The notes under the pieces were generated by a model that was given only the letters and a program-made list of their open reading frames with translations, was not told the DNA's origin and did no database searches. Below are positions 1,030 through 39,081 of a stretch of DNA of 49,452 nucleotides, piece by piece. The translations under genes were made by a program, and so were the position numbers. The DNA comes from Psammoneis japonica (lineage: Eukaryota): assembly GCA_008632985.1 (NCBI GenBank), contig QPGO01000347.1, forward strand, positions 1 through 49,452, given 5' to 3'. Every line of letters starts with the position of its first letter. Within the stretch, counting starts at the first letter, position 1.

Positions 1030-1048
1030 GATGATGATGATGATGATG
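1030..1048. repeat. (GAT)n microsatellite upstream of the minus-strand gene
   Basis: gatgatgatgatgatgatg seen directly. Confidence 0.8.
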
Positions 1049-11581: not shown

Positions 11582-12339
11582 CAGATGTGCAACTTCCTAG
11601 TTTCAATGTAAATTGTTGCGGTCATGGGAGTGCAGACAATGTAGAACGGGTTTTTGGATGGAAACCATTGGTGTCCCACAAAGGCATGACGCCAGAGAGT
11701 GGCACCTTGCATTGATTGGCTGAGACAAAAAGGCGACACTGTGACACCTTTTGCCCATGTGCTGGCCTCAGGACAACAAGCCAGGTTTTTGTCCCAAGTC
11801 AGCCACAAGCAAGCCATTGAAAAAAGTCAACAATGCATGGAAAGATGGCTTGCAGAGTGTCACTTGATTTCCTGGAGGGGCACAGACTCTCTTTGTGTCT
11901 CTCACCTGAGGGCACACACACCACCAAACAGCCCTGTGACAGGTGCCCCCACAAAATGCACTTCTTTGCCATTGATTTGCAAGGCTGCAGCCCCCATGTT
12001 TTGTGACAGATTGCCTTGATCTTGGCCCTCCCACCCCGTTGACATGCTGAGGGAGTGTGAGCAACTGTCATGACATCACATTGCTCTCAGAAAATTCAAC
12101 CTCTGGATCTGTCATGCCTGCCATTTTCACAAACTCCCAAGAACTTGCTCTTACGCCCTCATTGCAGCTTGCAAGAAAAATTGCAACAAAGACATCTTGC
12201 AAGAAAAAGCAGCAACAACAAGACATCTCAAAGAACCTCAGCTGTCAAGCTCTCCCTTGGTTTCTCACTTTCCATGGACCCAGTGCACAAATGATGGTGT
12301 GAAGCAGGTGCAAGTGCAACATCACAATCACATGTCTCA

Positions 12340-17790: not shown

Positions 17791-18298
17791 ACACCACATG
17801 AATCGACCATTGGACAAATGATGCCACCCAATGTTCTCCTGAGATCAAAACAAATCAACACCATCTTGGAACCAAGCCTCAAGGGCTGACAGAAGTAAAT
17901 TGCACAAGGATGGAGATGTGTGGATGTCGTGAACTCAGAAAAAATTGGCTTCCTGGGGTGGAAAGCACTCCACTCCTGCTGGCAGGCAAGTTGGCAATGC
18001 ACACAGTCCACAGGTTTAGAGTCACAGATTCACTTGTTGTTGTTCTGGCCAGCTTCCACCAGCAGACAGATTTTTCTTGGGAAAGAATCGTGTTGGGAAT
18101 CGTTGGTTGCAATTCAATTCAATCCAATCTTAAAATTTACACCGCCACTTCCAGCGGCTGCCTGAGGCTCAGTCACGCCTGATTTTTCCTTTCAATCCAC
18201 AACCATGGAATGGAGTCAGAGCGTCGGCACACAAAACAAATGCAGTTTGCTTGATGAGTCGTGGAGCAATGGCAGACTGCACCCATTTCTGTCATTGG

Positions 18299-21200
18299 TC
18301 AGTCTGTGGTGAGGGCAGTGATCGCACGTTTCGCTGTTGCTGCTGCCACTGGCCAGCGTCGTTTAAAGTCCATGTCTTCGGCTTGTGTCTCCTCCATGGA
18401 CCTAGAGAACCACCTGGCACACTGGGGCATGTCAGATGGGTGATCAAAGATTTCCGCATGTTCGTCTTCAATCCGCCCGTCTAGGATGCTGTCAACAGTG
18501 AGTCTTGATTCTGAGGTTGGAGATGCGGCCACCTGCATTCGATGTTGCCACATGTCCCAAGCTGCACTCCACAGCTGTTGGATGATGCCTGCCACCCATC
18601 ATTCTCCAGCATTCCGACGTTGCATGAAATCGCAGCACGCCTGCTGAGCCGCTGCCCACTCTGTCGCTGGGAACCCTCACATCAGAGAGTGATCCCCGAG
18701 TGCCTCCTGAGCAACAAATGCCTGTTGCACCTGTGGATGATCCGATGTTGGCGTGGGGCAAGGAAGCTCATCGTGCCAACTCTTTACAATGCGGATGACA
18801 CCCTTCCTTAAGTCCGGGTGTGTCGAGTGATCCGTCATCCACTTCTCCAAGCTTCCTGTCTTTTTCTGCCACAGTTCCTGCGCCGTGTGAGCCGCACACT
18901 GCAACACGTGATCGATTCCCTTTTCATCTTCCCCGCATCTTGGACACGCCGCGCTCTCCACTTTTTTCCAATGATGCATGTTGTTGTTCGTTGGGACGAA
19001 GCCTGTGTTCCACTTTGGTTGCCACAGTTGTCGGAACGTTGGGCACCTTCGCATTGCTCGTCCCAGTGCTTTCCAATCAATGGTCACATGACTGTGTTCA
19101 ATCTTCAGCTTCTTCATCCAGTGCTCTGTCACAGGTGGACCGCAGACATGATCGAGGACCACACATTCTTTCCATGATGTCATCGTCTTTTCTCCCAACC
19201 CAACCGTCCAAATCGGTTGTGCAATTTCACATGGCGCAGCACCTTCATGTTCTCTTAGAGCCTCCTGATGCGCCTTGGCTAGAAGATCCATTTCGACATT
19301 CAATTGCTTGATGCAGGACAAGTCTTGCAGTGGTGATTGCTGATCCTTGTGGCCTTCCACCTCGACAGCCTCCACTGTCAATGGAAGTTTGTGAGAAGCA
19401 TGCTCCTGATCGTGTGAATCAAATCACAGTTGGCAAGGGTGGGGTCGTCGTACGAGTTGTAAAAACACGTTCTTAATCCCAGATCACAGTCACACGCCAG
19501 AGTTGTCTTCCCTCTGCGGATGTTGCACTGTTTGCACAATCGTTGGAGAAATGCCACAATGCCAAAAATTCCCCCCAGCTCTCCCCTGCAGGGTGCAAGG
19601 TCTGTGGTTGCCCCCGGAGTCTGATTCACTCCCTTGCACCAGTGTGAATGTCCTTCGGATGGTGGCAGGATCATGCCAGCCGCAGCCAGTCCTTCTTTGC
19701 ATGAGCCATCTGTGACACTCAGAGCCGTCCCGTTTTCCATTCCTTGAACTAGTTCGTTCAGGTCCGGTTGGTGTCCGCAAGGAACAAACGACCAGTCGGT
19801 GTTGCTGAGAGCTCTTTCCGGCTCTGTCACTCGAATCGTTGATGTCCCTGTTGGTGTGATCCTGGAACCGTTCCGCACGACCTGTGTCGGAAACGCGTCT
19901 TGAGGAATGTTGTTCACATTGCCATTTAACTGATGTCATGATCTTTTGTTGCGTCTGTGTTGAGGCAATCTCACACACAATGCAATGCCCTCCGTTTCTT
20001 TGCAGAACACTCTGTCGTCCGTTTCCGAACACCACCATGCTGTTGTCGGTTCCCGCGTCCATTTTCCAAGTGGCCGTCGAAGCCGAAGTTGTTGGTTCCC
20101 ACCAATGGCAAGGAAGCTTGTTGCAAGTGCTTCTTGCCAGAGTCGCCAGCAAGGTCTGGAAGGGTGCCCTGCCTTTGGCCAGTTGTGTGTTGTCTGGCAT
20201 GTTGCAGTTCCGCGCCAAAAGTCTGGAAGAATCCGTCTGCCATCGCCTGAAACAATGTCCGACAGCCTCACCGCTTTCAACCACATTCTGCATGAGTTAA
20301 TTTTCCTGAGATGATCTCCTTTGCAGCCGTGTGCTTCGAATGCTTCCATCAAGAAAGCATCATTTTGCCGCAGCAGTTGGATTGCAGGCGTCGGGGCTCG
20401 CAGTTTGATCGAATGTGATGAGCAGAAGTGCCACAGCGATTTGACCCAGGTTGCTGTGACTGGGATGGCAAGTTTGTTGCAGTCCAGTGAGAAAATGCTG
20501 TCTCCATGCCCAAGTTCCAGCACCATGGTTTCGCATGCATGCTGGATCTCTCTCCCCGTCATCAACTGTGTGTCCATTTGTTGCAAAAATGCTGCGACCT
20601 TTGCAATTCCCTGTTTCACAAATGGTTCCGACAAGCCCAGTCTGTTGAACCATTTGGGTGCAAACAGAATCTTCCTTGGAAATGACCGAGGATGTCCCAT
20701 TGCGGGCAGTGCAACCTCATGCAGCGGTTTCTCTGTCTTCTGACACTCCAGCTTCATTGGAGATGTTGCTGCAAGTGGACATTCAATGGACCGCATAATT
20801 CCGCCCGTCAGAGAAAACCAGGCCTCCGTTCTGTTGAGATGGCCACAACGTGCTTGATCGGCCCATTTTTCCACTTTCTTCTCCATTGCCTCGATCTGAG
20901 CTTCCGAGTTGCCGTCCAATGCAATGCATGCTCCCAACGTTTCTCTTGCTTCCGACACCTCCATTCTTTCAACTGTTGACCTGTTTCCTTCGTGATCCAG
21001 TGGGGTGATGTCTCCTGGCGATTCTTCCTTGCTCTGATGGATCCACCTGTCGTTTTTCCATTGAAAGGATGCCAGAGACCAACAGCTTTTTTCCGGCACT
21101 GGTGCACCACCCGTTGCCCTGATCCCTCCTTCCCAACAGTTGGACATGTCTTGAATCTCTGTCAGCACATCCTCACACGTTGAGTCATCAGAGTCCGGGA

Positions 21201-23850
21201 AGCATGGAAGATCTGTGTTGTCAACGAATGTGCAGCACACGCAGTGACAAGCGTTCTTGGAAATCGGAGTGACCGCCCGAACACCGCAGCCGTCTGCTTT
21301 GAGCATGTCAATGATTGGGATGCTAACCACGAGCCAAATGGCCGGTGCGGCACCATGACCTTGAAAGATTCCTTGCAGTGGGATCTCAATCACGCCGCAT
21401 GGTTCTTCCGAGTCTCCGCACGCCGTTCTCACGCAGTGTTTCATCTGAGTTGGTGTCCCGATCATCATGAAGACCTCATCTTCTCCCGCTCCAAACCTTC
21501 TCATGCAGAGAGCAGCTGCCGCATGAAGAATGCGATCGCAGCACGATTTAGCATCCGTGCTGTTGATGGCTCCCGGTTGGTGTGATTGACGAAACACATC
21601 ACCTGTCAACACCTTGTTGAGAGCGCAAAGAATTGCTCCATGCCTTTTCCGACTTCTGCAGGCTTCCCAAGGAATCGCTTTGCATGCTTCCGCGTTGTTG
21701 ACCAGTGCCCTTGCGATGCACTTGTTCATCTTGTTGTACATTGCTTCAAAAAGCACAATGATTCGAAGTTTTTTAACATGAGACGAGTCCTTCTTCTTCG
21801 GGATCATGACGTCTGTGGCCTTTGTCCAACACTTCAGTGCACAACCATGTTCAGCAGGAATTGCTGACATGCATGAGTCGAACTCTGCCAAAGTTTCATC
21901 TGAGCAACCTGCTTCACAGTCGGAGAAGGTCGGTCCGAAGGGGCTGCTGGTTGCACGTGCTTTCATTTTCTTCCATCCCTTGACATGCTCCTCTGTGGTG
22001 CAGTCCAAGTTAATTTCCGGGAGCGGTGGTTCTGGTCGCTTGAGCTGTTTGATGCACTTCGCTGTGTGTTCATCCACACCTGGGGGAATGTCGTACGTTC
22101 CCTCTAATGCTCTTTTTGCGGCCGGAGTGTCCGAGTTGCAGCCAAAGTCTTTCAAAAGAGGGTCCTTCATGAATGGAACCATGTGCTGGCTTGTTCAAGT
22201 TTGACCGTGTCGAGAGCGTCCCTCGCATTTGCATGCTTCTTCCATTCCCTCTTTTGTTGAGAATGTTTTGTCTGCTCCATTTGATCCTGGTGCCGTGACT
22301 GTTTGAAGCGCCGGTCGGGGTTTGCCGGTCACTCGTTTGATGCGACTGAACATTCTCTTTTGACGGCAGCTGTGCCGGATGATGCGTTCCTCTTTCTCCT
22401 GTGTGGTGCCCTTTCTTCTGCTTGCTTTGCACATCGGATCTTAAACTCATCTTGACGAAGCTTTGCGGCTTGTCTCTTGAGTTTGCAATGTCTTTTCATC
22501 ACCAGTTCATGCTCTTCTTGCACTCTGTGTGGTCGAAACCGAAGTGCATCCATTCTCCCTGTGCACTGCATCAATCTTTTGATGGTCTTCACGCTGACTC
22601 TCCGGAAGTGATGCATTTTGTAAACAAGTCTCCACATGCGAATCTCTTTCCTCGCTTCATTTATGACGTTGCTGGATTCCACCTCATTCACACACAGTTT
22701 CCTGCATTGTGATTTTGCCTTCTGTCGAATTTGATGGTTCAGGTGAAAGATCCGCTTGCATTCTTGCTGTTCAGCAAGTCCAAATGCATCAGAGTTTTCC
22801 AATCGTGTGGCTCTCCTGACAGATCGTGTTTCAGCAATTCTGCAACCACGAGCTGGACGCCTTCTTCACAACTTTCGGGTCTTTCAGTTTTCCTGCCAGC
22901 CGGTCTGAGACAGTCTGGAGAGTTTTGGTGGGTTAAAACCCAGTGCACTGGGTTTCGAAATGTCAATCCAAAGAATGCGGTGATCGGAAGTGCAGTCGAA
23001 GTCCCCAAAACCGGACATTCCTGCCTTGGTGACTTCCAGGGCTGGCGAAATTAGAGTTGTGTCAACCGGGATGTTGGAACGATTCTTGTCACAGGTTGCC
23101 ACTGTTGGAAGATCCGGATGCGTGGTTTTTAAGGCATCGATTAGATGAAGCGCTCTGTGCCACAAAACAAATGTCGTCCCTCTAACGTTTTCGTTGAAAT
23201 CGCCTCCCAACACTGTCAGATCACCTCCCTCCTGCCATTTCTTGATGTGGTTAGCCAAATCTTCCAGCAACGCTCATCTTGGGCATCGCAGATCATTCTT
23301 GGCAAGAAGGCATGTTTCTTGCTGAGAGCAGACTTTACCCGGGTTCGATTGGTTGTCTCAGACTGGTCGGCATGCTGTGATGATCCTTGTGTGAATTCCG
23401 GACTTGCCTCACAATCTCACCCATGTCCATCTGCCTGGTCCTGACGGATCTTCTCCGCTTGAAATTAAATGATGGTTGACATCTTGTGTGAGCAGATGGC
23501 CCACTCCTCCGCACGCCTTTTGTTTTCCGTTGAATGGTGCTGGTTGGCAGTGACGAGGGAGCTGTGTTTTGAAAGATGCCTCCATCGATCTTTCCATTGC
23601 TCGTGTTTGGGGATTCTCTTGAGGTTCAAGTTGATCTCTGTCAAGCCCATGAAATCAGAGTGGTGATCTGTCATCCACTTCGTTGTTCCTTTGTGTTTGT
23701 CTTCGGAAGAAGGTGAAACTGGAAGACCGCCAACGTTGTGAAAGGCGATTCTGATGACATTGTGTCGTTTTGTCAAGGTGTTGTCTCCCCATGCCTCATC
23801 CGATTGACGACTGTCAGCATCCTGATTTACGTCCTCCTTTTGTGGTGGTC
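18299..23850 (-). pseudogene. LINE ORF2: AP endonuclease, reverse transcriptase, RNase H and C-terminal zinc finger (frameshifted)
   Basis: APE: IRIAFHNVGG, GLTEIN, GGDFNE, SDHRILW. RT (19936..22182): KLRII, DAKSCCDRI, GIFQGHGAAP, FVDNTDL. RNase H: VTDGSC, RGELGG, VEGHKD, LNVEMDLLAK. Zinc finger: CPRCGEDEKGIDHVLQC. The 5' boundary is approximate. Confidence 0.88.
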
Positions 23851-24034
23851 GTCGTGACCGCTGAGGACGGCAAGGACTGGGGATCCTGTCCCGCTCCCTC
23901 GGCCTGAGAGCTGGGAAGGTCTTCCAGGTCTCCTTGTTTGGAGTCCTTCTGGGCTGAACCAACATCTTGATCTTTTGTTGCTCGCAGCTTCTCTGGTTCT
24001 TGGATTGGCGCTTCGTTCATTTCTTGCACCTCCT

Positions 24035-26005
24035 TTAACTTCGCTCTGGTTGATGGTGTTGTCTCACAGATGCATCTTCCTCCTGTTTGCACTCATGATG
24101 ATTTTCCAGATTATGAAGGTCAAAGGTTGCCAAGCACTTCGTGGCTGACGTGTGCTGTGTGTCGTCGTCCTCATTCCCAAGGTGGCCAACAGATTTTACA
24201 TCAGCGGCTTGAGATGGTTTTGTGGCAACTTCCTGCGCAGCTGCAGGTGGTCCTTGTGCTCTTCTCTTTCCGCTTGTGTCTTTTTGAACATTGTCCGAAG
24301 ATGATTTCCTTTTTTCATTGCCATTCGTTTGCGCTTCTTCGTCAGTCCACTGGTCTTCCACACCCCAAGGGTCTTCTTCGATCATGTCAGAAAACATTTC
24401 GCTGTCCTTGGACGTTGCCAGTCCTGTTTCTGGATCACATTCCAAATGCTCGTACATGGCTGTTCCTGCAGTGGTGAACCATGGTTCTGCGGATGCTCCG
24501 CAGGTGTGCAGGCATTCCGGGACAATGTTGTTGATCATTTGTGCAACTTGATCGACCAATTTCCTTGGAAATGTCATGACATGGTTGTTCAGTCTGTTCC
24601 ACTTGACATCAAGGTGGTGAATCAATGGAATGATCTTGTCTGGATTGGCAGGGTCTGGGATCCGTTTTTGCATGATGTGCTGCCGCAAGGTCATTTCACC
24701 TCCAGCAACTTGCATCTTGCGGTCCGGGTTGTCGAGAAAGCCGAAGTCGAGTTGTCCTGTGACTTTCTGGCAAAAGAAGTGTTGACGTTTTTGAAGCTTG
24801 TCGACATTCTCCTTGGTTTTGTCTGAGGCGCATTGTGTGGATTGGTTCGAGCAGCATGGGATGAAGCGCAACTCTAATCCCAGCACCTTCTTCCTGGCTC
24901 CTGCTCTCCACAGTCGTTCCGCCGCCAGCTTGACTTTGTGCACTTTGCTGGACTCAACAATGATGTGAAGAGCTTCCGGATTCTTGTTTGGCGCATTCCT
25001 GTCAAAAGTGGGTCGTTTTCTGTCCTTTCCCACTGTGGACCGCCATTGAATGCCGAGGCTGTCACAGTCCCTGCCTGGGCCAAGAGCTTCACTGAATTGT
25101 CTGTGTGGTGTCCGCTCACTCATTGTTTTGGCACTCTGGCAAAGCCGTCCAATGCATTCAAAGCATGTCGATTGACAGGGTGTGGGATTGCGTCCGATGG
25201 AGAATTTGCCTTTTTCCATGTCTGCGAACATCCCTGAGAGTTGTGAGCCGCAACCAGCCATGATTCTGGTGCTGCAGTCTTCTGCCTCCTGGATGAGGCA
25301 AAGCTGGCAGCATGTCGTGTGTTCTGCGTTGACTCTTGGATTGAGACAGTCTGCCCCCAAGAAGGTGCTTAGCATTTCTCTTTCCTTCGCTGGTCCTTCC
25401 GGGACATCTTCTGGGGATGCCATTTCTCCAAAGGCATCCGCTGGGTCGGGGTCCCATGTGCCAACTCGGACTTCTTTTCCAAGCATCTCTTGCATTGTCG
25501 CGAACGATTCTCGCAGGACTGAGGCTGCCACTTTCAGAGGTTTTTTGGATGGTGGAATCATCAGAAATGCGTTGTGATGCAAATGACACCAAGGAATTCC
25601 TTCGGATTCGTCGTTGGACTCTGTTGCTTGTGGTGTCTCGATGTGCGGTGACTCTCTTCCACTGGTTTCTTCCTCGGCTCCTTCGTGCAGTGCATCAGTC
25701 TGCTGCAACTCCTGTTTGTTTGTTTGTTCTTTGTTTTCGTCGTCGGATTCCGTAGAGTGATTCTTGCTTGTGAGTTGTTGGAAGGCATCTTCGTCGGGTT
25801 CTTTGTGCATGTGATCTTCTTCCGTGGTTGCCATTTCCGCCGGAGCAATTGCCTTTGAGTTGTCCTCCTTTTTGTTTTTTCTGCTTTGCGCAAAGGGTTT
25901 TCCATCATCAGGTGTAAGTTTTCCTTCCTTGTTGTTGTCTTCCTTGGTGCGTGAGTTTTGCGTGGAATTTGCACGAGTGTTCTTGTTTTTTACGGGGTCG
26001 TCCAC
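24035..26005 (-). pseudogene. LINE ORF1 (656-aa open segment, charged low-complexity N-terminus)
   Basis: Long ORF upstream of the APE domain, inside the TSD-bounded element. Only 1 Tyr remains. Confidence 0.75.
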
Positions 26006-26386
26006 TCATTTGTGTTGTCATCCATTTCCTCATTAAAAGGTCTTTCGGTTGTTTCGTTCATTTGTCCTTTACCTTTTTTCTTTTTATCTCCTTTGCGTGG
26101 AGAAGTGTTTTTCTTTCCGCCGGTGCTTCTGCGTTTGGCACCTGCCATTGTGCGATTTTTTTAGCTTGTTGATTGTTCGTGCGTGCGAGTTATGGGGATC
26201 GTTGGTTGCAACACAAACGACACCGCCGAGCGAGAAGCAAAGCAGTGAGTAGTACGAGTCTTCACAAAAGCATGGTTCGTCCTTCAACCGATAGGTTCAC
26301 TCCAACTTGGACTTTTCTCTGACGACTCGCTCGCAGATCGCAGATCGCAGCAAAACGAAGAGCTTAGCGATAGAGTGAAGATAAAG

Positions 26387-28294
26387 ATGCCCGACGACGA
26401 ATCTCCTCCTGGAATAACGACCGCTGCCCCTGGTCGACAGTTGAAACTTCCAGTAGGTCGTTTAGCGCAACCGGATGAAGATGTTTTCGTATCTCTCAGC
26501 GATACCGTTGAGAAGCTGGAGACACTGATGGCGGATGCCGCGAAGAAAGGTGGTAGAATTGTTTTTATTCGGGCACCCGTCGGAAGTGGAAAGTCAACTC
26601 TTGTTAAATATCTTACAATGAAGCATAGCGACCAGTTTGTAAGCGTTCGCCCCGCGACTTCGGCGAAAAATTGGTACAGGAGCGCCATCAAAGCCAGCGG
26701 CCTAGATCCGACAACTAGCGACATCGCCGACGCGCTGCAGGCCATCGCAACAATGGGCAAGACAATTGTCATCGACGAAGCGCATAGTCTGTTTGCGTGG
26801 CCAGAAGTGGTGGCTGACTTCTTCAAATTTACGGAGCATAACCAGCCCCCACTCAGATATCTTCTTTTTTCCGCTTCCGGCTCTGCTGTGGACAGCAAAG
26901 GAAAGACTATTGCAACGCCGGGCGAAATTAGACAGAAATACCTTTGGTACCCTCCTCAACCGGATGCGGATCAATTGAGCCAAGATCTGGTGGAAGCCGA
27001 AAAACCAATTTACCTCGATTCCGACTCCGTCCGTTTCTTTACCAAGCTCTGCGGTGGCCATCGTGGGATCTTTATGGAAGCCATGGGCTGGGTCCAGGAA
27101 TGCCAAGACAATACTCCAGACAAACTAGAAAACACAAGTTGGCGCATAAGAGATAGCGTTTCACACGTCCGCCGATCGTTTGAGGATAGCCGCTTGGGAG
27201 GACGCAAGGCGTGGAACACCGGTTTGCGGGCGGCATTCAAGCAAAGTCGCGCCGTACGAGTGAATGGCGAGTTCGCCATACTAGGGAAAATTCCGGCAGA
27301 ATTCGGACTTGTTTTGTACGGCGGGCCCAAAAGACGTGCCGAGCTGAATGGCAAGGAGCGCGATTTGACCATCAACGGCTTTTTGTTTCCCGAGCGCCAG
27401 AGTACCAATGAGGAGTTCGTCGCTTTCGACTGGATGGATCCCTTGGTGCTGTATGGGGTCCCGAATCCTATAATGGCCGAGTATTACGGTGACATTTTAC
27501 CACTCGAGGTGGAAACCTACAAGCGTGAATTGGTAGAAGACTTGAAGAAACCGGTTTCTGCTGCTGACCTGATAGCCCGCGCCCTTCCGTACATGACATT
27601 GTCCGTCGTAGTGGGCGTCCCAATTTCAAGAGGTAACAAGAAACTAAGCGATCCGCTCTCGGTAAATGCGCTGCCGTACGAAGACGATTACAACCGCGCC
27701 ATGGCGGAAATACTCAGAAATCAAATGGATTACATTGTATCAACTCCTCTAGATGAAAAAAAGGGAAAGACCGACATAGTCGTGTCCTATGAAGACGACA
27801 CCACTTGCGCAATCGAGTCTATCATGTCATACCAACGCCCGGTATGTGTAATGCTTTGACTTTAAGATACGCAGTGCTTGGTGTTATTGTCACTTTCTCA
27901 TTATCCTTTGTCCTCTCATATGAATCTACAGGGAGCCCACGAAGAGCATGCTGGTCGATTTTTTATTCATGAAAAAGCAAACTACGCTGACGCGAAACAA
28001 AAGGCCCTCGTCATCATTGGTGACAAGGCAGCAAACGTGAAAGACCGCATCCAACATGTCTCAGAAGTGTTGAAGAACAAAAAAGGCATCGTTGAAATTA
28101 TTGGTCTTTGTGTTTCTCTAAATCATGACAGCTATGAAATGTATCTGGAGGGGGCTGAAAAACCTCTGTTCTTTGTGTGCGATCGAGTTGCCAAATGTCT
28201 GGAAAAAGACGATATGGGACGGTTCAAGACTGCGCAAGTTTGTTCCCTTGAATCTTCTGAACACGCGCAGAAGAAACAAAAGGCGTCAGGTTAA
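26387..28294 (+). CDS. P-loop NTPase fused to a C-terminal PD-(D/E)XK restriction-endonuclease-like domain (Crinkler/CR NTPase+REase architecture), ~605 aa; intron 27842..27931
   Basis: Walker A RAPVGSGKST, Walker B IVIDEAH, LCGGHRG. The C-terminal YEDDY...GKTDIVV...CAIES...EEHAGRF...Y resembles CR-REase motifs. A GTATGT donor and CTACAG acceptor join ORF 26375..27859 in frame with ORF 27878..28294. Unmutated composition. Confidence 0.8.
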
Positions 28295-30593
28295 AGTGTG
28301 CCTTTCAGTTTGAAGAAAACGCACACAAAATGCTCGATTCATTGAATCATCTACAAAAATGCATGATCATCGTTTACGTCTTCACTTCGGTAGGTATGAC
28401 AGTACGACGCAAAGATTTAAGTACTCTGAATGTTTTATGGCTGCCCTGTCCAGAGAGGACTTTGTTACAGTCAGGCGCCCCGATAGTAGTACGTAGAACT
28501 AAATATGCAGAGTAGAATCAATAGCTTGCTCACCGCGACGGGTGGAACCCGGGGGGAGCCACAGCTACATTTTGGCCAAGAAATTCAACGGTCTACTGTC
28601 GGGAAACTTGACAGTAAAAACGTATTTGCACTTAAAGTAACAAAGTTGGGAGTGTATTTTTTGGAGACGCGCCAGATCTTTCGTCGCGCCATGTAGAACA
28701 TTTTGGTCAACAATTGCGATGTTAAAAAAAATGCTTGAGTCAAACAAAGAAAAAATTCGAATGGTGCCAATTCGGTCCGAAGAAAAGGTCAAAATGCGTC
28801 CTCGCGAACGGTTTCCGCGCTCCCCATCCTCTTTCTCCATCGCGCAAAACGAGACAGACGAAGCCACGGCAGCAACGGGAAATTGACGAAAAGCATTTGT
28901 GCGATTGACTGCCCAAGCAAAGACATTCTCTCAACAAGCAGTTGGAGCAAAGACGAAAGCGACGAGTCCCAGTGCCTCCTTCAAGCATGCTTTCACCTTT
29001 TCACTCACTGTTTTTTTTCTCGTCATTGTTTTGTTTCTTGGGCTCTTCAACAGAGCCAGAGGTGTGCTTGCGAAACCACTGTCAGTGTCTCAAGGTTGTT
29101 TCCACTCATCTCAACAATGCACAGGTTGCAATCCCTCCAGCATCATTGGGCAAAAACACCCTGGAGGTTTGTGTTGCTGTGCCAGCAATCTTGTGCCAAG
29201 CATTTTGTCAGCCAAGGCCTTGTTGGAAATTTTGTTGGGATGAGAAAACAAAAAAAACTTGGATGGACCATTGAGTTTCCAACAAAAGCTTGCCTTGACA
29301 ATTGCCCCACTTGTCTTGCTGGATGACAAAAAATGCCATCGTTTGGACAACATGGGTGGTTTCTCTGGCTCCCACCAAACAACAACTCAAGCAAGCCTTT
29401 TATGAGCAGCAATGGCAGGCACATCATCTCCCTCTGTCTGCATCAGGACCATCTGTGACAAATCCATTGGTGCTGGAAGAGACGGCTCATTTCCGTCAAG
29501 CTTCTTGGGAACACAGAAGCCATTGTGGAATGTGCTGCCTCAGGATTGCATGGCGCACCCATTTCACATCACACCAAGGAACTTTGCAGCACTTTTTTCA
29601 TGGAGATGTGTCAATGCATGCAGACACCATGGCTTGCAGTGCAGGAAACACCAACATTGTGGGCACAAACAGTGCTCTGCTTGAAACGGCACCACAAGAC
29701 TTTTCCTGAGCACAGCCTGAACAGCACAAGGGCACATGTTGCAGTCAAAACTCAAATTTTTCGAATGTGTTTTATGGACAACAACAACAGCAGCATCCAC
29801 TGCCACAGCAGGAACAGCACCACTTGCCACAGTGGCAGCACCAACAACAAACAGCAAACCATTGGATGACTCAATCCATCGTGACTGAGCCCTCCTTTGG
29901 AAATCCCTCTTTTGCACTGCCACAGAGTTCAGAGTCATGAAAATTATGGGACCATTCTGCATTGTCCAGTCAACAGCATTGCTTGCAGAAAGGCTCACAA
30001 AACTGCTTTCCATTGAGCTGTCCAATGGCCCAACCAAATGGTCCACAAGTTGCGCACAGTCCCCAGCAACCACTTCACCACCAAGACATGCCATTGCAGC
30101 AGAAACAAGAAAGGGACAGACCAACTGATTGAGATGTCCATTTCATTTCCAGCACTTTTTAATTGCATGTGTTGGACCTTTCCTTGTGTGCAAAGCTCTG
30201 TTCTTGATCTGAGCCAAGCGCATCTGTTTGGAGCGCCCCTCTCATCTGACAACCATGCAACAAGACCATCCACCTCAGAATCAAACTCAACCAGCATGGA
30301 GGCATCTGGACAGAGTGTTTTCAATGATTCTTCAGTCTTCAAAAAGCAAAGCTCTCTCAAAACTGAAGCAGCACCCATGCTCTAGTCTCACCCATTGCAG
30401 CATCAAACATTGCAGGAGATTCTCCGCCGTTTGTTGAGGCTGCAATGACATCCTCACAACAATGCCTTGCCATGTTGACATGGAGCCAATCATTGGCATT
30501 GGTTGGAATCAATGCATCCCAAAAAAGTGAACCCAAGTCCAAATTCCATGTGCAAACCAACCCGGGTGTGTCAAGGGTGGCAACAATGCTTGG
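27548..30593. repeat. Block Y copy 1 (3' part of the NTPase gene plus downstream region D), duplicated at 46081..49452
   Basis: Direct collinear alignment from 'ggtttctgctgctgac' to 'aaagtgaaccc...aacaatgctt'. Confidence 0.9.
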
Positions 30594-30889
30594 TGACATG
30601 GCCACGACATCACGAGCCTTTGTCGTGCAAGACGATGAGCAAATGTTGTGAGGCACCACAACAAAGATCTGTCATCAACAAGTCAACTTGCAATGCAGCA
30701 CAATGTTGAAGAATTGTTGGCAGCATCTGATGCAATGACAGAGTTGCCAACAGCATGGACAAGTTTGCAAGACCTGTGACCAGGCATTGCCGCCAGAAAG
30801 TCAAGTTTTCCTGCTTCTTCTTTGTGAGGTGCATCAGCAGAGGGCAACACTGCTGTTGCCAGAAACAACAGAAACATGACAAAATGCAT
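29900..30889 (-). pseudogene. Possible decayed gene for a secreted protein
   Basis: Signal-peptide-like start (MHFVMFLLFLATAVLPSADA) followed by protein-like fragments in shifting frames, partly conserved in the 48800..49452 copy. No family recognised. Confidence 0.3.
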
Positions 30890-32121
30890 GTTTGGTTGAC
30901 TTCAGCTCCACAGTGCAGCTCTCCAGCCTGTCTTTGATCTTTTTTGTCACACAGTGGCTGCCTGTCACCCAGAGCTTCCTGGTTGGTGGTGCGCAACATT
31001 TTGAGGCTTGTTCTTGGACTGCACAGAAATTTGTCAACAACCCCTCTCCATGGTCAAGATTGTCAACAAATGCATGTTGACAGGGTGCTCATGCCACCAC
31101 ATGAAATTTTCAGCATGTCACCCTTCAATGCTGTGAAGATGCTGCCCCCCAAAACCCGCTGCCACTCAGCACACTCCGGGCATTGTTTTGTTGACCTTGC
31201 CAAGGCTGTGCCTGCTGTGCATGTCAGATGATGGAATGCTGCTGTTGATGCTTTTTGTTGAGGGTGCCTTGCATGTGCACAGCTGCCCTGTGTTGTTTGC
31301 ATGTTGGGCCCAACATGATTCCTCCACTTGGGGAAAAATGGCTGGCGCTGATGCTGGCTCACAATTTTTATTTTGCTGCTCTCCTTTCCACAAAAACCAG
31401 CAGCAAGAAGAAAAGCAAGAGTCAGACAAGGCAGCCTCCTCCCACAAATCATGGGATTGACACCTTTGGCAGAGCACCCTGTTTGTCTTGGTGCGCAACG
31501 CCAGAGACTTGCTGTTGGCGGCAGTGGCCAATCTCTCACTCACAAACTCCCAAGCAGCCAACGGCATCTTGAGCCCAACCTGCTTGCTCTGAAGCCCTTG
31601 CAGCTTGCAAGAAAAGCAACAAGAGGACATCTCAAACAAACATCAGCTGTCAAGCTCTCCATTGGTCTCTCACTTTCTTGCAAAACGACGTCCGTCCCCC
31701 ACCCATGCCGGCACACACAAAAGAAATCCAACATGCCACACCGCCCGGCACTACATACAGTACATACAGTGCGAGCCGACAGATGGACGAAAAAAGAACT
31801 GTCATGCTTTTTAAGAAAGCACGACTAAATGTTCTGTGAAGATTGTCTTTCATATAAAATCACGTCCAAACTGAAGTAGATTGGACACCAAAATGACTCT
31901 CGCCGGCATGGCATGCCAGTTCTTCTTCTGTCTGGTGGCGGTTTTTGATGGGTATTGAGTCGAATCAAGAGAGCTTCGATCACCTCTGTGCTTGTTTCAG
32001 GTTCAATTGATGTGCTATACCAGAACAACGCGATTGCCACCGTATTCTAAGGAATTCTAAGGAACACACGGAGCATCAGAAGACAATCACCAGAATTAAA
32101 ACAGCGTAGGGCTCTGAAAAT

Positions 32122-34242
32122 ATGTACCGGTATGATGCAAAACGTTCCTTGGCGGTGTGTTTCGCACTTCTCGTCATTCTTGGAGTTGTGGTGCGCTTCA
32201 ATGTCGACAGCGACGTTAACGGGGTTTCGGATATACTGAGCCTTCGATCTACTGTCGATAGGCAAGGAAAAAAGATAAAAAAGCTCGTGAACTCAAACTG
32301 CGTTTACAGCGTTTCAGCGTTTGATCGTACGGGTCAAAGGCAGTCCGAACCACTTTCCAACAGCTGTCTCGAGTCCAATGCCGACCTGTTGACACACCTT
32401 GTGGCGCAATCCGGTGCCGACGTCGATGATCCGAACGCCACCGCCGTCATCGCGATCAGCGTCGTTGATCGTCAAGAAATTCAGATGATTGAATCACTAG
32501 CACTCCTCGCTGACGAGTTTCTTACGCCAGTATGGACTGGCGCATCATGGCGGAGCGCTTCTTAGTAGACAAGGCGGGGGCTCTGACTCGGATGAATCTG
32601 GGAACACCACGGGCAGTGATGTTATGGAGGCAAAACCTACCGTTGAAAAGTCAAGACTCTTGTTGGACCCGGCGGCGTATGCACCGGCTGAAAGCGGAAC
32701 TTTCGCAGACCCTTTCATCTCTGCAATCCGTGCCCTTCGTAATGATGAGAGTGGCGGATTGTTGCGCGAGAACAGGAACGCTGCCTCGGTCGGAAAGCAC
32801 AATTCAAACTTGATGGAGGAATTGATTCATGTCGATTTGATTCTCGTTCGGGTCTTGGAGGAGAAATTGGCAGCTTTTTCCAATGCCTTGAGACGCTTTC
32901 AGTTCCCAAAACCACTTCCGATGATGAAGGCGAGGATAGTGAGTGTGCCGCCAGTATGGCAATTAATCATGGCCGAACATGGGTCAAATACGGCGGCCCA
33001 ACGGACTTTCTTGGAGCGTGGACCACGACCAGTGCCAGTTCGCTTACCGAATCCATCGCAAAGGGCTTTCCCTTTATCCGCGTCTCACCTGTTCAGTGGG
33101 CACGAACGTACCATTTTGATACCTGCAGTGCCGAAACAGTTGCTGCAATTGATCCTGAACTTGGTATTGTGAATGGCTTGGACTGCGGCTTTCTTCCCAT
33201 TTACGGTGGGACCTGCCTACGTGACCGAGTCGATCCCTCGCTCAAGTGTATGAGCGAGTTTAAGATGGGGAGCCTCAGTCATGTCGTCCTTCCAAAGAAT
33301 GGCATCCCAGAGGAGGTTTGTCAGTCAAGCCACGAAGAAGCCCCGCCATACACTGCAACTACCCTTCATGGTTCCTATGCTAAGCCATTCTTCGAGTGGT
33401 GCCCATCGTGTATGGCATTTGGCTATAAAGGCAACCGGACGATCACTCCGAAACTCTTGTCGAATCCGTCAGCACCTATGGGCTTTGGCGAGTTGAACAA
33501 GGCGGACATGGCGACCATCAACACAAACATGCCTACCTGCGGAATGGAGCTCAATGACCTCTCGTGCGGTGACGACGGCAGACCATGCTGTTGGAGCGAA
33601 GTGAAAATTTCGCAAGATGTCCTTGGGAGCCACAACGGAACTGCTGAAAAGATACCACGGGCATTTTACCCCAGTATCTTCAACCTGTATCTTGTCCGTT
33701 TCAATCGGTCTAGTAGGAATCGCATCGCCCGCCTTTATCATCCACGCTTGTCAGCCATGATTGCTCGCGGGGTTGGATGGGAGTCAGCCTTGGCAACCGG
33801 ACGCTGCGCGACTCTGCACATTCGTCGAGGCGACAATATGGACCGGTGCAAGAGTGGAGAGAAATTCTTTTGTAGCATGAACCTAACGCTTGCGGACTAC
33901 ATGGAGAAGGCCGCACCAATGCTCGACCAGCTCGGTGATGCCAAGCACGTCTTTGTCATGACGGACGATCCGGCCGTTGCCGATAAGAAGCGACAAGCAC
34001 CCTTTCTGAACGATGGATATTTCATTGAGGTCATTTCTGGATATAATCAGTATAGCGAGGAGACCTACAATGACTGGGACCCGTTCATTGAGAGTCTCCA
34101 CGGAGCCCAGTTTTGCCGAGCCCTTGTTGGGCTCCACATTTCGACGGTTTCCGCGCTTGTCTTTAGAAGCATTTGCGTGAGATGGGGCGAGTGCCCCTTG
34201 ACTGACGACTTTAGTGGCAGACGTGGCGTTGCCTGGCAGTGA
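32122..34242 (+). CDS. Fucosyltransferase-like paralog, copy 4; three apparent 1-nt deletions (~32529, ~32580, ~32905)
   Basis: ORFs 32122..32565, 32624..33172 and 32956..34242 are collinear with copy 2. HIRRGD/FVMTDD motifs are intact, Tyr codons are retained and composition is unmutated. Confidence 0.75.
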
Positions 34243-37200
34243 CAGAAATGTGATCCCACTCCTTCTGCACATCATGGAGATTTGCTTTGGTTTTCGTCAA
34301 CCGTTTCCCTGCAATTGTTGCGGTCACGGCACTGCCTCTGTGGTGAGACTTTGGGAGAGTGGAGGCCAGTCACTCTCACAATTGCAAACTTGTGTGTTGC
34401 CAGCTAAAGAGGCCAACTCATTTAACAACGACGCAGTTTTGAATGTTGAGCATGACACCACAGTTGCGTCGCTCACGTGCCGTCATTTATACGGACACGT
34501 GTCGATCCTCGTTTAGCTGACGGCAAACACACGCCTTTTTCTCAGACTGTCTGTTTAGGCCACAGTCCAATCTAAAAGGGATGATGCAGTGAGACAATGT
34601 GTCATCTGAGAGTTGACGGGGTTGCGTCAAAAGAGCAAAGCAGCATGGTGTGTCTGGGGTGGGGGGTCACCACTTGGCGGCTCCAAATGTGATGTTCGCG
34701 CCACTCCCATTGGCACCACTGTTCCACTCACCAAATTGTGGCCTGATGGTTTTCATCATTGTCTTTGGACCAAGAATGTCACACCATCTGAATGCTGCCC
34801 CTTGACTGTGGCAATTGGACAAGTTGGTGGTTTTCGTGCATTGAGTGCGTGCTTGGTTTTGTTTTGTTTGGGCATGAGCTTTTTTGGCTGACAAAAGCAT
34901 GCAAAGTTTTGCTCAAATTGTTGCACGGACATTTTTCTTGGGCACCTCTTTCTGACACCACCAAGCACCAAGAATTTGCCATGGTTTGATCCCACAACAT
35001 CTCTCATGTCAAGATTTTCAAACACACGCAGCTCAATGAGGGCACATGAATGCCCAGCTTGTTGCACCCAAACAATGAATGTTTGCAGTGCATGCAAAAT
35101 GGCAAACCAGCCAAAGCTGAAAAAACAGCCATTGACAAGTTTTGCTTCAGAGCCAATCCTTTGTGGGAATGACTTTGTTTTTGTGCTGTGAAAGGCACTT
35201 TTCTTTGAAGCTTTTGTCCCTGGTGTCAAAACAGCAGTGCTGCATTTTGACTTTTCTCTTCATTTGAGGCTGCTCACAAAACAAGATCATGGGTGCAGCT
35301 GCTGCATCCATGAGTGGCAGAGACATTTCCACTGCTCCAGCAGCTGCAAATCAGGATCTCAGTCAACTCCATGAGGTTGGTGCTTCCAACACCAAGGTTG
35401 TGTTTGTGCCCAAATGCCAATTTGATTCTTGTTGTGTGAGCCTTGTTGGAGCAAGGCATTTTTGCACCACCCCCTGTCTCTGAAGAAGAGCATGTCCCTG
35501 AGCTCACCATGGAGCACACTTGTGCTGTTGCCACCAATCCTTTGTTGGGTGGTAATTTTTGAAGTGCACCGCATCTGACAAATGACCTCAAGCATCAAAC
35601 ATTTCAGCATGTTTGCAGTTCTCACCATGCCATTGTTCCTGAGCATGAGCTTTGAGTGTTTCCACCTGTCACAGCTGCAAGAAGCTGTCTGCAAGGCCTC
35701 AACAGCATGGCACCAGCAAGTTCAAATGGTTGGGTTGGCCCTGCACTCTTGGTGTGTTTGTTGTTGCACCAGTTCCCAGCACCCCAATGGGCACTTTGTT
35801 TTTGCTGCACCAGTGCAAGCACATTGTTTGCACTCAGCACATCATCCATCATTTCCTGTTTCTCTTTTGCAGTCTTTTGATTTGTTGCAAGGTCTGCGGG
35901 AGCAACACTCAAAAAGATGCGCTTGCACTCACTCTCTGAAACCAACAAACCTGCAATTGATGAACCACATCATGCACTGCACAGCACAAGGCACAAATTT
36001 TGGCATCAAACTTTGGCGCCAATTGGCCATTTGCCAATGGCAGGTGCTCTCCAAGGCCGCCCAGAATGTGATGTCCTGTGGGAGCAGTGCTGCAATGGTG
36101 TGTTGTCAGATGCAAAGTTGCTGTTTCAAAACATGGCTCACAACAAGGCAAAGTGTGTTTGCTCCTCTTTGACATTCAAGAGCAAGAAAAAAGTTCTGGT
36201 TCTTCAATGGGCAAACATTTTTTTCATGGCTTTAACCCACTGCAATTAAGATGTTTTGAGGTGCTTGGTGAAGTGCTTTAAAGACTTGCCTCATTTCAAG
36301 CACCTTTGCTCATGTGCTGAATTTTTGAAGGCAAGCAAACATCCGCAAAGAATGCTGCTGCTAAATTGCAATTGCGTGTCACAGTTGTGTTGGTTGTGTG
36401 CTTGATTTGCGCAGATGGGAGACTCCTGCCACTGCTGACCCCCCACTCAAGATTGCAAAGCTGCGCTGCTGCCCATTGATTTGGCATCTTCAAAGCACTT
36501 TGAAGTTGGCCCTGAACAGGGCCTGCTGGAACATGACAAGTTGGCCAAGTTCTGTGGGTTTTCACCTGCTGCTGCAACTCACTCAGTGAGTTGTTGAGTG
36601 TGTTCTCCATCCATTGCCTTGACATTGGCCATGCTGTCATGACTCCATCCAAGTCTGCCTCTGCTCCTGCCCCACTCCATTGCTCTGCTTTGAAAGGTGT
36701 TGCCAAGCACATTTCTTGTCCCAAGCATTGGAGATCATCCAGCTGCAAGAAACAAATGTGCAATCTGAATTTGCCCCAACATCTTTTTCTTGGACAACTT
36801 GTCACTGATCTGCATGTTCTTCCTGCTCTTTCTGCTGACATTTGCTTGCAGCAACTGCTTGCTCTCTTGGACACAGCCCTGGGCCAGTCTGGGTGGAGAT
36901 GGCTCACTCACAGCTGATGTGCAATGCCCCATGCTTGGCAGAATGATTGTGAGTTTTGTGTGCACACATTCAAAATGTTGCTCATTTGTTCCACACATTT
37001 TCTCATGCAAGGGGTGACATTTCAAGCATCCTCTGGCATGGTGCTTGCTTTTCATCATGACCACACACTGCTCTTACAGACCAGCTCATCATCTGCTTCC
37101 AACTTGCATCTTTTTCTCAGCAGTGCAGCTGCTGCTCAAACAGTGGGTTTTGAGGGTGGTGCCTGAAGCCATCCAGCTGTGTGGGTTTTGGGGAAAAGGC

Positions 37201-39081
37201 ATCTGCTGCAAGCACCAGCAAAGCCATCTCCACTCCAACTCAGAACTTCTGCCAGCAGTTGTTGCGTGCACACAGGCCACACCTGAGCCACCCTGCTTTT
37301 GGGGTTGCCATGTGCAGGCTGTTGTTCACAAAGCAAACAACCACCAAAAGCAACATTGTGACATCTGGCAAAGGCAACTGCAATGAGGTCAAAGCATCAA
37401 AAACACTTGTGACATGCTTGCCAAGAAGGGTGCACATTGAACACATGCCATTGGCTCCTCCAATCTGGCAGGGCTGTGGGGTTGGTTGTCACAACAACCA
37501 AAGCTTTCCTTCCACTCTCCTGTTTCTGGAAATTCAGCAGCAAAGAAAGATGAAAAAATCAATCTGTGTGGCCCATTTTAAATCACAGGGGTTGACTTTG
37601 GTGTGTGACATCCTGCATCTTTTGGCACAAAGAGCACTGCTGGACATCATCAACATTGCAGGATGGCCTTGTTGAAACTGCTGCAGCTTGAGCACGACTG
37701 ACCAAAGAACAGAGAAATGTGGACAAGCCCTTGAAGCACAACAAATTGCCAGCTGTCCCTCCCTTAGACAGCTGTTCTTCTTGGGGCAGGGGCACTCAAG
37801 ACAGACCACCAGAGCATCCACAATGGCCCAGACTTTGCAGCTTTCAAGAAGAAAGTCAAAAACATTTTGCATTCCAACACAATGTCATGCCAGGTTGTGT
37901 CTTCACAACAGGTTGTGCCACTGGTTTTGACACAAAATCTGGGGCACTGCTGAGAAACCATCTGGAAAATGTTGACATGACAGCCTTTGTGAAAAATCAG
38001 CTTCAACACACACCCCTTGTCTTGGCTGCAATTTTTGTCCCCTTGCACATGTGTCACATCAAGCAGGGGCAGAGCTTTCACAGTTTGAACATTGCAGTTT
38101 GGGTTTTGCAAGTGCTCTCATGCATGCAGCAGCCACTGCTCACTTCTTGACCAGCTTGTTTCTGGGTTTGCACCCTGCATCATTTCTTGGGTTGCCATGA
38201 GCAGAGCCCACCGCATCAGCCTTTGCTGGCACAGAAATGAGGCACAGGTGGCAACTGCCATGGAGGCAAGGGAGAAGAGGTTGTTGGCCCTGAACGTCAT
38301 TCTTTGTGGTTGGCAGCAGTGTTGCCCAGCAGCCCAAAGAGATGAGATGGAAGCCACACATGATTTCATGTTCTTTGGGGGGCGCTCTCCTCTGCACCAC
38401 CCAGTGGCACAGCATGGATGACAGATGGTGCAGTGGAGCAAAATTGGGCTCTGGTCAATGAAGCAGCAAGCTGTGCATGTGGTTTCACAGAGGCCCAGCA
38501 TTGGATGGTTGGTGAGGGACTTGGCGTTGGCAAGGCTGAGGCTTTGCAAGCCTTGTCACATGCTCCTGGGGGGTGGCAGCATGGTGGGTGATGCCAAAAA
38601 GGGCAGATGTGGCAGTGGGGAAGAGGCCTGGTGGGGAAAGCTGGGCATGGGCACAGGCAGTGTGTGTGGATGGATGCTGCAGAGCAGGCAGGCTGGGATG
38701 GGATGTTCTCTTGTCAAGATCCAAAGAGAAGGCAGCAAGCAAAGCAGTGGGCTTCTTTTCATTTTGCATTCACAATCAAATGAGTGCAGAAGAAGCACAA
38801 CCAATTGTGTTTGATGAAGAGTTCCTGGACAGTTTTCTCATGTGCATTGAAGCAAATTGGACACCAAAATGACCCTCCATTGTGCCTGAAAGGTGAAAGG
38901 CATTCTGTTTTTGGTGGTTGGCATTGAGCAAATCAATGAGAGTGGCAATTGCTGCCAGTGCTCATTTCAGGTTCAAGTGTCTGCCTTGCCAGAACAAAGC
39001 AATTGCCGCCATGTTTCTGAGGAGCACACAGAGCATCAGAAGATGTTCACCAGAATTGAGACAGTCAAGGGTTAAAGAAAC
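34243..39081. repeat. Decayed spacer block S, copy C
   Basis: Collinear with 3626..9382 (lacking the 1-kb insert). Like copy A, it ends in the GT upstream module. Confidence 0.9.

Follow-up and report, generated by a model that had tools for sequence, protein, structure and literature searches.

Results

The window analysed here is a stretch of 49,452 nucleotides of Psammoneis japonica DNA (contig QPGO01000347.1, positions 1 to 49,452), in which the dinucleotide TpA has almost disappeared except in three islands that hold a P-loop NTPase gene and two copies of a glycosyltransferase-like (GT-like) gene. Neither selection on the encoded proteins nor homology between the duplicated segments of the window can set the borders of these islands. 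The reading that we favour, and consider probable, is that two context-specific transition processes act on all DNA outside active transcription units and that the chromatin or transcription state of a copy decides its fate, membership in a refuge being independent of copy number, sequence or the presence of an open frame.

Three classes of DNA in the window

TpA and CpG were followed along the window with sliding windows and with lists of the positions of every TA and CG, and observed/expected (o/e) ratios were pooled for each class of DNA. In the three islands (1-3970, about 26030-28723 and 31752-34573, together 9.5 kb) 321 TA were found against 598.8 expected, an o/e of 0.54, and CG was at 1.07; the normal TpA content claimed for these segments by an earlier inspection of the sequence (the original prediction) was thereby borne out far beyond chance. 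The fully depleted class (24.6 kb) contained 62 TA against 1633.6 expected (o/e 0.038), with CG at 0.148, TG at 1.85 and CA at 1.87, whereas the o/e of TG and CA in the islands was about 1.13. The corresponding indices in depleted DNA were 0.0-0.1 for TpA/ApT and 1.9-2.6 for (CpA+TpG)/(ApC+GpT). A third, intermediate class of 15.3 kb (9000-11600, 18100-26029 and 42700-47500), which had not been part of the original prediction, has lost TA (0.10) and kept much of its CG (0.67); it comprises copy 2 of the GT-like gene, an insertion resembling a long interspersed nuclear element (LINE) and the segment 42700-47500 with a fragment of the NTPase gene. The G+C content is similar in islands, fully depleted and intermediate DNA (0.497, 0.485 and 0.515), as expected if TA to TG and CG to TG changes offset each other.

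Island 1 (1-3970) has normal TpA and CpG and contains a hypothetical gene (280-981, minus strand), GT-like copy 1 and about 345 bp of its 3' flank; it reaches the start of the window because the hypothetical gene adjoins copy 1 upstream. Island 2 (26030-28723) covers the NTPase transcription unit, from about 360 bp 5' of the ATG to 429 bp past the stop codon, and island 3 (31752-34573) covers GT-like copy 4 together with some 370 bp on its 5' side and 331 bp on its 3' side. The flank of copy 1 (3971-8999), for which copies 3 and 4 have homologous counterparts, is depleted to a TpA of about 0.03 and a CpG of about 0.1-0.3. The DNA between islands 2 and 3 (28724-31751) is likewise depleted, its first 350 bp or so forming a shoulder that is free of TA and still bears CpG.

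Borders of the islands

At the 3' side the last TA of the three islands lie at 3970, 28723 and 34573, that is 345, 429 and 331 bp from the respective stop codons (3623-3625, 28292-28294 and 34240-34242), and the following TA are found only 574, 678 and 980 bp further on. With the TA density taken from the 400 bp that adjoin the border on the island side, the probabilities of such gaps are 3e-8, 7e-20 and 3e-9. CpG continues at approximately normal density for 350-550 bp beyond these points and then thins out, leaving shoulders without TA and with CpG at 3971-4525, 28724-29070 and 34574-35030; at 28726-29200, for example, 0 TA and 22 CG were observed against 32.3 and 26.9 expected. The TA map is thus sharper-edged than the CpG map and nested inside it, and the TpA and CpG processes differ either in reach or in speed. 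TpA had been described as fading within 300-500 bp past each stop codon: the distance was right (331-429 bp), but TA ends in a step and the fading is that of CpG, which takes 350-550 bp more.

At the 5' side of island 2 the border falls within the LINE-like insertion, which is 8,085 bp long (18113-26197, minus strand), lies between the two halves of an exact 14-bp target-site duplication (18099-18112 and 26198-26211) and has its 5' end 190 bp upstream of the NTPase ATG. The switch in TpA had been placed at the target-site duplication; it is indeed near this point, but its exact position is about 170 bp inside the LINE. The outermost 165 bp of the element (26030-26194) have 5 TA against 8.5 expected and 10 CG against 7.2 expected, the following 430 bp have 3 TA against 18.4, and 25000-25599 has a single TA against 33.0; apart from the promoter-proximal 165 bp the LINE is in the intermediate state. 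Protection therefore depends on how far the DNA lies from the active gene, irrespective of where the sequence came from.

Duplicated copies with opposite fates

The NTPase gene (26387-28294, plus strand, 605 codons) consists of exon 1 (26387-27841), a 90-nt GT..AG intron (27842-27931) and exon 2 (27932-28294). The segment 27548-30591 matches 46081-49449, 18.5 kb away, where a 5'-truncated paralogue (46006-47300, plus strand) starts at about residue 362 as judged by tblastn and retains the equivalents of the intron and the 3' flank. At the 50 TA sites of the intact copy (27548-28725) the paralogue has TG at 29, CA at 13 and TA at 7; in other words 84% of the sites were converted, and 42 of the 43 changed sites now read TG or CA. 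The 62 CG sites were converted less often (31/62; 20 TG and 11 CA, with 28 CG kept), and the background mismatch at other positions was only 3.5% (31/891). The conversion also includes the intron equivalent (7/8 TA), and the TA o/e of the paralogue in the three codon phases is 0.07, 0.06 and 0.00. The two members of this pair are by definition of equal age, and as judged from their alignment only one of them has been mutated.

The GT-like gene belongs to a repeated unit of 6-10 kb that is present in four copies (1596-8484, 9221-11585, 12353-17787 and 31951-38363). Copy 1, whose gene lies at about 1561-3625 on the plus strand (tblastn with homologues matches 1738-3619 in three frames), and copy 4, with an ATG at about 32122 and the stop codon at 34240-34242 in island 3, are both unmutated even though their identity is 84-100% across a stretch of more than 2.4 kb; the full alignment (1596-5578 with 32163-36149, 30.6 kb apart) shows 84% identity overall. 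The claim that genes with close paralogues in the vicinity have escaped mutation was thereby confirmed both for the NTPase gene, with its copy at 18.5 kb, and for GT-like copies 1 and 4. In contrast, copy 3 (12353-13664, plus strand), a 5'-truncated fragment with homology starting from copy-1 position 2664, is fully mutated. Among the 26 TA shared by copies 1 and 4 it has kept 1 (16 are TG and 8 CA, i.e. 24 of the 25 changed sites), and among 66 shared CG it has kept 3 (32 TG and 26 CA, together 58 converted), while other dinucleotides were kept at 65-92% and the nucleotide identity to copies 1 and 4 is about 81-82%. In total, both promoterless truncated copies in the window (copy 3 and the NTPase paralogue) are mutated, and all three intact units with a promoter region, a full gene and their own 3' flank are spared. 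In the islands both strands are spared, with neither TA to TG nor TA to CA changes, which fits an effect on a whole domain better than strand-specific repair.

Copy 2 (9383-11581, plus strand) has a full-length open frame of 732 codons and is in the intermediate state, with TA lost and CpG mostly kept. It retains 10 of the 41 TA shared by copies 1 and 4 (5/22 and 5/19), 25 of the 31 changed sites being TG or CA, and 75 of 120 shared CG, which is near its 60-81% retention of other dinucleotides. TA was lost in every codon phase (o/e 0.13, 0.20 and 0.28, with CG at 0.81-0.83), and 11 of the 15 tyrosine codons shared with its paralogues are now cysteine or histidine codons. An open reading frame thus gives no protection, and it is also uninformative about current function because TA to TG or CA changes can never create a stop codon. 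The ratio of nonsynonymous to synonymous divergence (dN/dS) of copy 2 against copies 1 and 4 is 0.19-0.25, which points to a long functional past, and this copy looks like a gene that was silenced recently after a long functional life. It does not have its own 3' flank, as the homology breaks off at about 11585-11660.

Between copies 1 and 4 the synonymous divergence (dS) is 0.16-0.37. A tract of 247 identical positions out of 247 (3238-3484 and 33854-34101) is preceded by 250 bp with 97% identity, with 84-90% elsewhere, and this pattern indicates a recent gene conversion between the two copies over a distance of 30 kb.

Selection and homology do not explain the islands

If TA had been retained in the NTPase gene by selection on the protein, it should be confined to positions where a change alters an amino acid. 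The TA o/e is 0.63, 0.61 and 0.60 at codon positions 1-2, 2-3 and 3|1, and in the last of these phases (NNT|ANN) a T to C change is always synonymous. In the non-coding parts of island 2, 8 TA were observed against 8.0 expected in the intron, 26 against 34.2 (0.76) in the 3' flank and 11 against 25.0 in the 5' flank. The check that had been proposed with the original prediction, namely TA retention at synonymous and intronic sites, therefore showed that TA is not confined to non-synonymous positions, and the view that purifying selection is unable to explain its retention is upheld. When copies 1 and 4 are compared inside the islands, the frequency of differences at TA sites is 0.276 against an average of about 0.18, only 1.5 times as high.

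The border at 28723 is located inside the duplicated block 27548-30591, in which both flanks are mutated and the gene is mutated in one copy only. Given that this border arose within the duplicated block, homology cannot have set it, and together with the unmutated state of copies 1 and 4 this agrees with the earlier suggestion that homology alone does not direct the mutations.

A spliced transcript from island 2

Contigs from two sequencing runs were compared with the window. A 2067-nt contig of the run here called X2 joins 26357-27840 to 27931-28512 and skips the 90-nt GT..AG intron; no such exon-exon joint was present in the contigs of X1, a DNA run of the same sample whose contigs span all 30 bins of the region 17001-37000. 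The joined form is therefore not present in the DNA, X2 must hold sequence derived from transcripts, and island 2 is transcribed and spliced. In island 3, X2 contigs match 33756-33900 and 33946-34137 with 0-2 differences, and these may have come from copy 4 or from copy 1 (at least 97% alike outside the identical tract). In X2, 21 of the 30 bins were without cover, all of them outside islands 2 and 3, and this was not counted as a sign of silence.

Direction, order and sequence preference of the changes

The comparisons between copies show that the process consists of TpA to TpG or CpA changes plus CpG to TpG or CpA changes that occurred in place and after duplication. When the flank of the NTPase gene (29001-30600) was aligned with its counterpart (47664-49451), 246 TG/CA sites were concordant and 68 discordant. 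With a derived share of about 40% among the TG and CA in depleted DNA (from the o/e of 1.85 and about 1.13 given above), our arithmetic predicts about 54-61 discordant sites under independent conversion, and both flanks were therefore converted separately after the duplication. Over the same period the paralogous gene fragment was converted too, and the intact gene together with its 429-bp 3' flank escaped.

From the retention in the paralogues, TA loss was calculated to be roughly 2.5-8 times faster than CpG loss. As TA loss runs ahead of CpG loss, the intermediate class is understood as recently silenced DNA. In the region 17122-21640, which is mostly LINE, 40 of the 173 differences between the window and X1 were classified: 19 were CG versus TG or CA in either direction, 10 made up five doublets of TG versus CA and 3 involved TA. 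These differences may be allelic or may derive from other LINE copies, and in either case CpG decay went on in the LINE after TA was exhausted, independently in two close copies or alleles.

For the sequence preference, 107 inferred ancestral TA sites (from copies 2 and 3 and the NTPase paralogue) were oriented by the changed adenine. The fraction of mutated adenines by 3' base was 32/61 for C, 29/60 for T, 11/46 for A and 12/47 for G, which corresponds to 61/121 before a pyrimidine and 23/93 before a purine (Fisher's exact test, p = 1.4e-4). The preferred motif is thus 5'-T-A-Y-3'. The 150 TA that remain outside the islands are mainly found in TTAA, CTAA, GTAA and CTAG, and ATAC, ATAT and ATAG together account for 34% of the TA in the islands and for only 2 of these 150 (chi-square test, p = 4e-18). 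We take the T-A-Y motif to resemble the U33-A34-C35 context of the tRNA substrate of TadA/ADAT.

On the sense strands TA to TG changes outnumbered TA to CA changes (61:30, p = 0.0015), and for CG the corresponding numbers were 63:50 (p = 0.26). A transcription-linked strand bias was considered for the 61:30 excess and rejected, since the T-A-Y preference on sense strands rich in tyrosine codons explains it more simply. The skew of TG versus CA along the window follows base composition.

Discussion

Probable refuges of the size of transcription units

According to the favoured reading, the islands would be refuges of the size of a transcription unit, each made up of a gene plus about 330-430 bp on either side. 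The loss of CpG would then result from deamination of 5-methylcytosine (5mC) in methylated, silent chromatin, and the loss of TpA from enzymatic deamination of adenine in DNA aimed at the same silent domains, so that a newly silenced segment would pass through a stage in which TA is gone and CpG is still present. In the diatom Phaeodactylum, transposable elements are reported to carry H3K9me2/3 and H3K27me3, with H3K9me3 and DNA methylation regulating them, and genes to carry H3K4me2 and H3K9/14Ac (PMC4504042); marks of this type are a plausible guide for both processes. Protection of the islands by N6-methyladenine was set aside, as the available text on Phaeodactylum describes 5mC only (bioRxiv 10.1101/2024.10.28.620566). 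The original prediction had held that chromatin or silencing state, or transcription, rather than homology alone decides which DNA is mutated. The part that excludes homology alone stands, whereas the evidence for the positive part is indirect (the spliced contig, the fates of truncated and intact copies, the gradient in the LINE, and CpG decay, which is the usual footprint of 5mC and extends over almost the same domains); chromatin or transcription state is nevertheless the reading with the best support.

Several observations weigh against this interpretation. In intermediate DNA, TpA was lost where CpG is near normal, and the two processes need not share a trigger. Copy 2 is full-length, with an open frame and its upstream region present, yet it is depleted of TA; either it was silenced for causes that are invisible here or gene integrity is not the criterion. 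The library type of X2 is listed as 'DNA?'. Finally, part of the border evidence from the GT-like units may be inherited: in the first 500 bp past the border, TG/CA sites of copies 1 and 4 were concordant at 100 positions and discordant at 2 (52:1 and 48:1), the mutated state of the flank just past the border is common to copies 1, 3 and 4, and the identical conversion tract is located close by. The border of the GT-like unit may thus be largely inherited or homogenised, and is so at least in part. Copies 1 and 4 have both maintained it, whereas in copy 3 it was lost, the same border sequence being mutated there on both sides.

Comparison with known systems

In the literature searched, the only report of TpA-directed DNA hypermutation that we found, for diatoms or any other organisms, is a 2026 preprint on Bigelowiella natans (Mettrop et al., bioRxiv 10.64898/2026.01.13.699255). 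In the available text of this preprint, 230 of the 231 single-nucleotide mutations in two integrated viral regions of mutation-accumulation lines were A to G or T to C, and all 230 were at TpA. One target was a giant-virus insert that is silent and present once, the other a virophage insert; the rate was raised about 1000-fold, and further clusters poor in TpA and rich in CpA and TpG, including transposon-derived sequences, were described elsewhere in the genome; a TadA/ADAT2-like DNA deaminase was proposed by the authors. The window resembles this system as reported there in the nearly exclusive change of TpA to TpG or CpA (24/25 changed sites in copy 3, 42/43 in the NTPase paralogue and 25/31 in copy 2) and in the regional action that spares ordinary genes and needs no repetition, the LINE and the truncated copies being hit in our case. 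It differs in several respects. In B. natans two viral regions are affected and have lost only part of their TpA (Rho TpA 0.45), whereas here most non-genic DNA has a TpA of 0.04 and genes are the exceptions; CpG decay is near-complete here, and the available text of the preprint reports none; and the T-A-Y preference seen here has no counterpart in that text, which gives no context beyond TpA. The host of the preprint is a rhizarian, while in the present case it is a diatom-like stramenopile whose refuges are gene-sized, and the rate there was measured de novo, whereas here the process is known from sequence, with 84% TA conversion over a background of 3.5%.

The chemistry known from B. natans is seen here in a diatom-like genome and on another scale, as the default fate of non-genic DNA. 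We tentatively suggest, with less confidence than for the refuges themselves, that a chromatin-guided DNA adenine deaminase acting on T-A-Y serves as the default genome defence of this diatom, and that such a system, if shared with Rhizaria, is old in the Stramenopiles-Alveolata-Rhizaria (SAR) group. If this were true, non-transcribed segments would irreversibly lose TpA quickly and CpG more slowly, active genes with about 350 bp on either side would be the only refuges, and the order in which TA and then CpG are lost would be a clock of the time since silencing. The T-A-Y preference narrows the search for the enzyme.

Fungal repeat-induced point mutation (RIP) causes C to T changes mostly at CpA, which creates TpA; its trigger is duplication, and both copies are affected. 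The window shares with RIP the irreversible, context-specific transitions that ruin transposons and spare gene copies and leave a dinucleotide footprint. The chemistry is however opposite, as TpA is destroyed here (TpA/ApT 0-0.1, TA to TG or CA), and, unlike under RIP, the duplicated copies 1 and 4 are spared and a border lies inside a duplicated block. The loss of CG to TG or CA, with CpG at 0.148 outside and 1.07 inside the islands, is like the decay of 5mC around unmethylated CpG islands, which the islands in the window also resemble in their size and in their placement over promoter and gene; they differ from CpG islands in that CpG extends 350-550 bp further out than TA and that a second, faster process acts on the A in TpA. 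RNA editing is heritable only through reverse transcription. The changes resemble hyper-editing of repeat-derived double-stranded RNA by ADAR, in that A to G changes with a 5' U/T neighbour occur on both strands. No RNA intermediate is needed here, since the intron equivalent, the 3' flanks and intergenic DNA were all converted in place, and whereas 5'-UAG is reported as the hot spot of wild-type ADAR2 (PMC10661471), TAG is disfavoured in the window (12/47) and TAY is favoured (61/121).

Alternative explanations

Transcription-coupled repair acts on the template strand and in the transcribed region. An explanation based on repair, which corresponds to the 'transcription protects' variant of the original prediction, would be that the TpA lesion and the T:G mismatch at CpG arise everywhere at a similar rate and that transcription-coupled or open-chromatin repair clears active units, the islands then being well-repaired DNA and the flanks no special target. 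It agrees with the extent of the islands, which follows the transcription unit, with the spliced transcript from island 2 and with the mutated state of the truncated promoterless copies. We nevertheless regard it as unlikely, given that both strands are spared (neither TA to TG nor TA to CA), that the spared zone extends about 330 bp beyond the 5' end of the transcript contig (26357) and 210 bp beyond its 3' end (28512) and enters the LINE by 165 bp, and that conversion of 84% of TA over a 3.5% background implies a rate far above that of spontaneous adenine deamination. Very-short-patch-repair-like misrepair, which would correct T:G mismatches at TpA to C:G, is indistinguishable from deamination with these data. 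A RIP-like mutation triggered by homology could also leave apparently protected genes behind if lineages in which a functional copy was hit had been removed by selection. Every mutated gene fragment in the window is indeed a duplicate and most of the depleted DNA lies within segmental duplications, but protein selection cannot keep TA in an intron, at NNT|ANN sites and in a 429-bp 3' flank, the border at 28723 falls in the interior of a block whose flank is mutated in both copies and whose gene is mutated in one, and neither copy 1 nor copy 4 was hit despite an identity of 84-100%. The giant-virus target in B. natans is moreover described as single-copy, and the chemistry is the opposite of RIP, so that this explanation seems to us very improbable.

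The islands might instead simply be younger DNA that arrived or was converted recently and has not yet been mutated, and the identical tract in copies 1 and 4 (3238-3484 and 33854-34101) shows that copying between genes does occur. However, the alignments are continuous across the borders, the dS of 0.16-0.37 that separates copies 1 and 4 is comparable in magnitude to the divergence of the saturated copy 3 from them (about 81-82% identity), and the NTPase gene and its paralogue are of the same age and only one is mutated; we give age alone slightly less weight even than homology. Least probable of all would be an artefact in which modified bases in silent chromatin were miscalled, 5mC as T and a modified A as G. 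The sequence does differ from X1 by 14 one-base indels in 20 kb (12 of these lie at 22408, 22817, 22859, 22916, 24065, 28723, 32044, 32529, 32575, 32907, 35230 and 36217). In the depleted flanks, however, the X1 contigs, which were built from 31-letter words, match with 0-3 differences per 614-1052 nt (X1 being possibly the source sample), miscalls at palindromic sites would conflict between the strands instead of yielding clean TG or CA, the conversions show the behaviour of heritable characters, being shared in some copies and discordant in others, and the same type of mutation was reported in Illumina-sequenced B. natans lines.

Under the favoured reading, in which the state of the transcription unit decides, the locus is a natural experiment with equal-aged twins of opposite fate, a border within a duplicate and a LINE that is protected only next to a promoter, and it allows homology, selection and position to be told apart as causes. 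The stop codons TAA and TAG cannot arise in DNA that is free of TA, and the resulting false long open frames are a trap for gene callers. The joint depletion of TA and CpG could be used to date silencing events and to improve gene calling in such genomes.

Other features of the window

The NTPase was matched by Pfam AAA_22 (E 2e-7, 31.8 bits against a gathering cut-off of 27), and the GSGKS of a Walker A motif (GxxGxGKS/T) is visible in its translation. Among its 29 homologues are a protein of the diatom Seminavis robusta with 50% identity and MMETSP transcripts with 67% identity, and on this similarity the window appears to be nuclear DNA of a diatom-like alga. When 114 stop-to-stop open reading frames (ORFs) with 120 codons or more were scanned with Pfam, the only models that passed were AAA_22 and its P-loop relatives, in the NTPase. 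For the GT-like gene 8 homologues were found, one of them from the diatom Amphora coffeaeformis. No Pfam glycosyltransferase family matched copies 1-4 at E 0.05 or better, a sequence search of the PDB with the copy-2 ORF gave nothing below E 0.01, and the leads in a protein atlas were fucosyltransferase-type clusters (O-FucT, NodZ, FUT8_N_cat and XG_FTase) at 0.87-0.89, under the line of 0.9.

Copies 1 and 4 share a one-base deficit in a run of C relative to copy 2 and the homologues, and copy 1 has one further deficit. The X1 contigs have extra letters at 32529, 32575 and 32907, and the apparent frameshifts in these two copies may stem from errors in the assembly or from variation among copies. 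The listed indels relative to X1 are insertions of a single base and, in one case, a deletion of 10 bases; several fall in homopolymer runs, and indel errors that look like frameshifts are probably present in the assembly.

In the LINE, a match to an AP-endonuclease (22887-23273, minus strand) had an E of 1.9e-4, which is below the Pfam cut-off; no Pfam reverse-transcriptase model matched the LINE ORFs, and a PDB sequence search with its 752-codon ORF gave nothing below E 0.01. An FVDNTD-like motif is present in this 752-codon frame, and TTGAA-like repeats form the 3' tail. X1 contigs have loose ends at 18112 and 26194, which suggests that further LINE copies exist elsewhere.

The gene at 280-981 (minus strand), divergently placed upstream of GT-like copy 1, is a conserved hypothetical gene with 8 homologues of similar lengths (best E 1.8e-18, 35-41% identity). 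In a first, broader scan of metagenome contigs no relatives were found; a narrower alignment gave three short loci (1.5-3.5 kb) with unremarkable TA (0.2-0.9) and CG (0.4-1.1), which say nothing about flanks. The block 42700-46000 resembles no other part of the window. It belongs to the intermediate class, with TpA at about 0, CpG at about 0.5 and a G+C of 0.55, and contains a 422-codon frame (43962-45227, minus strand) without a family match. Depleted DNA is rich in long ORFs on both strands, for example 4166-4750 (minus), 7319-8209 (minus) and 40591-41403 (plus), and the 49 kb contain 43 ORFs of at least 150 codons, most of them without a family; long false ORFs are expected in such DNA because TA to TG or CA changes never make a stop codon and remove TAA and TAG.

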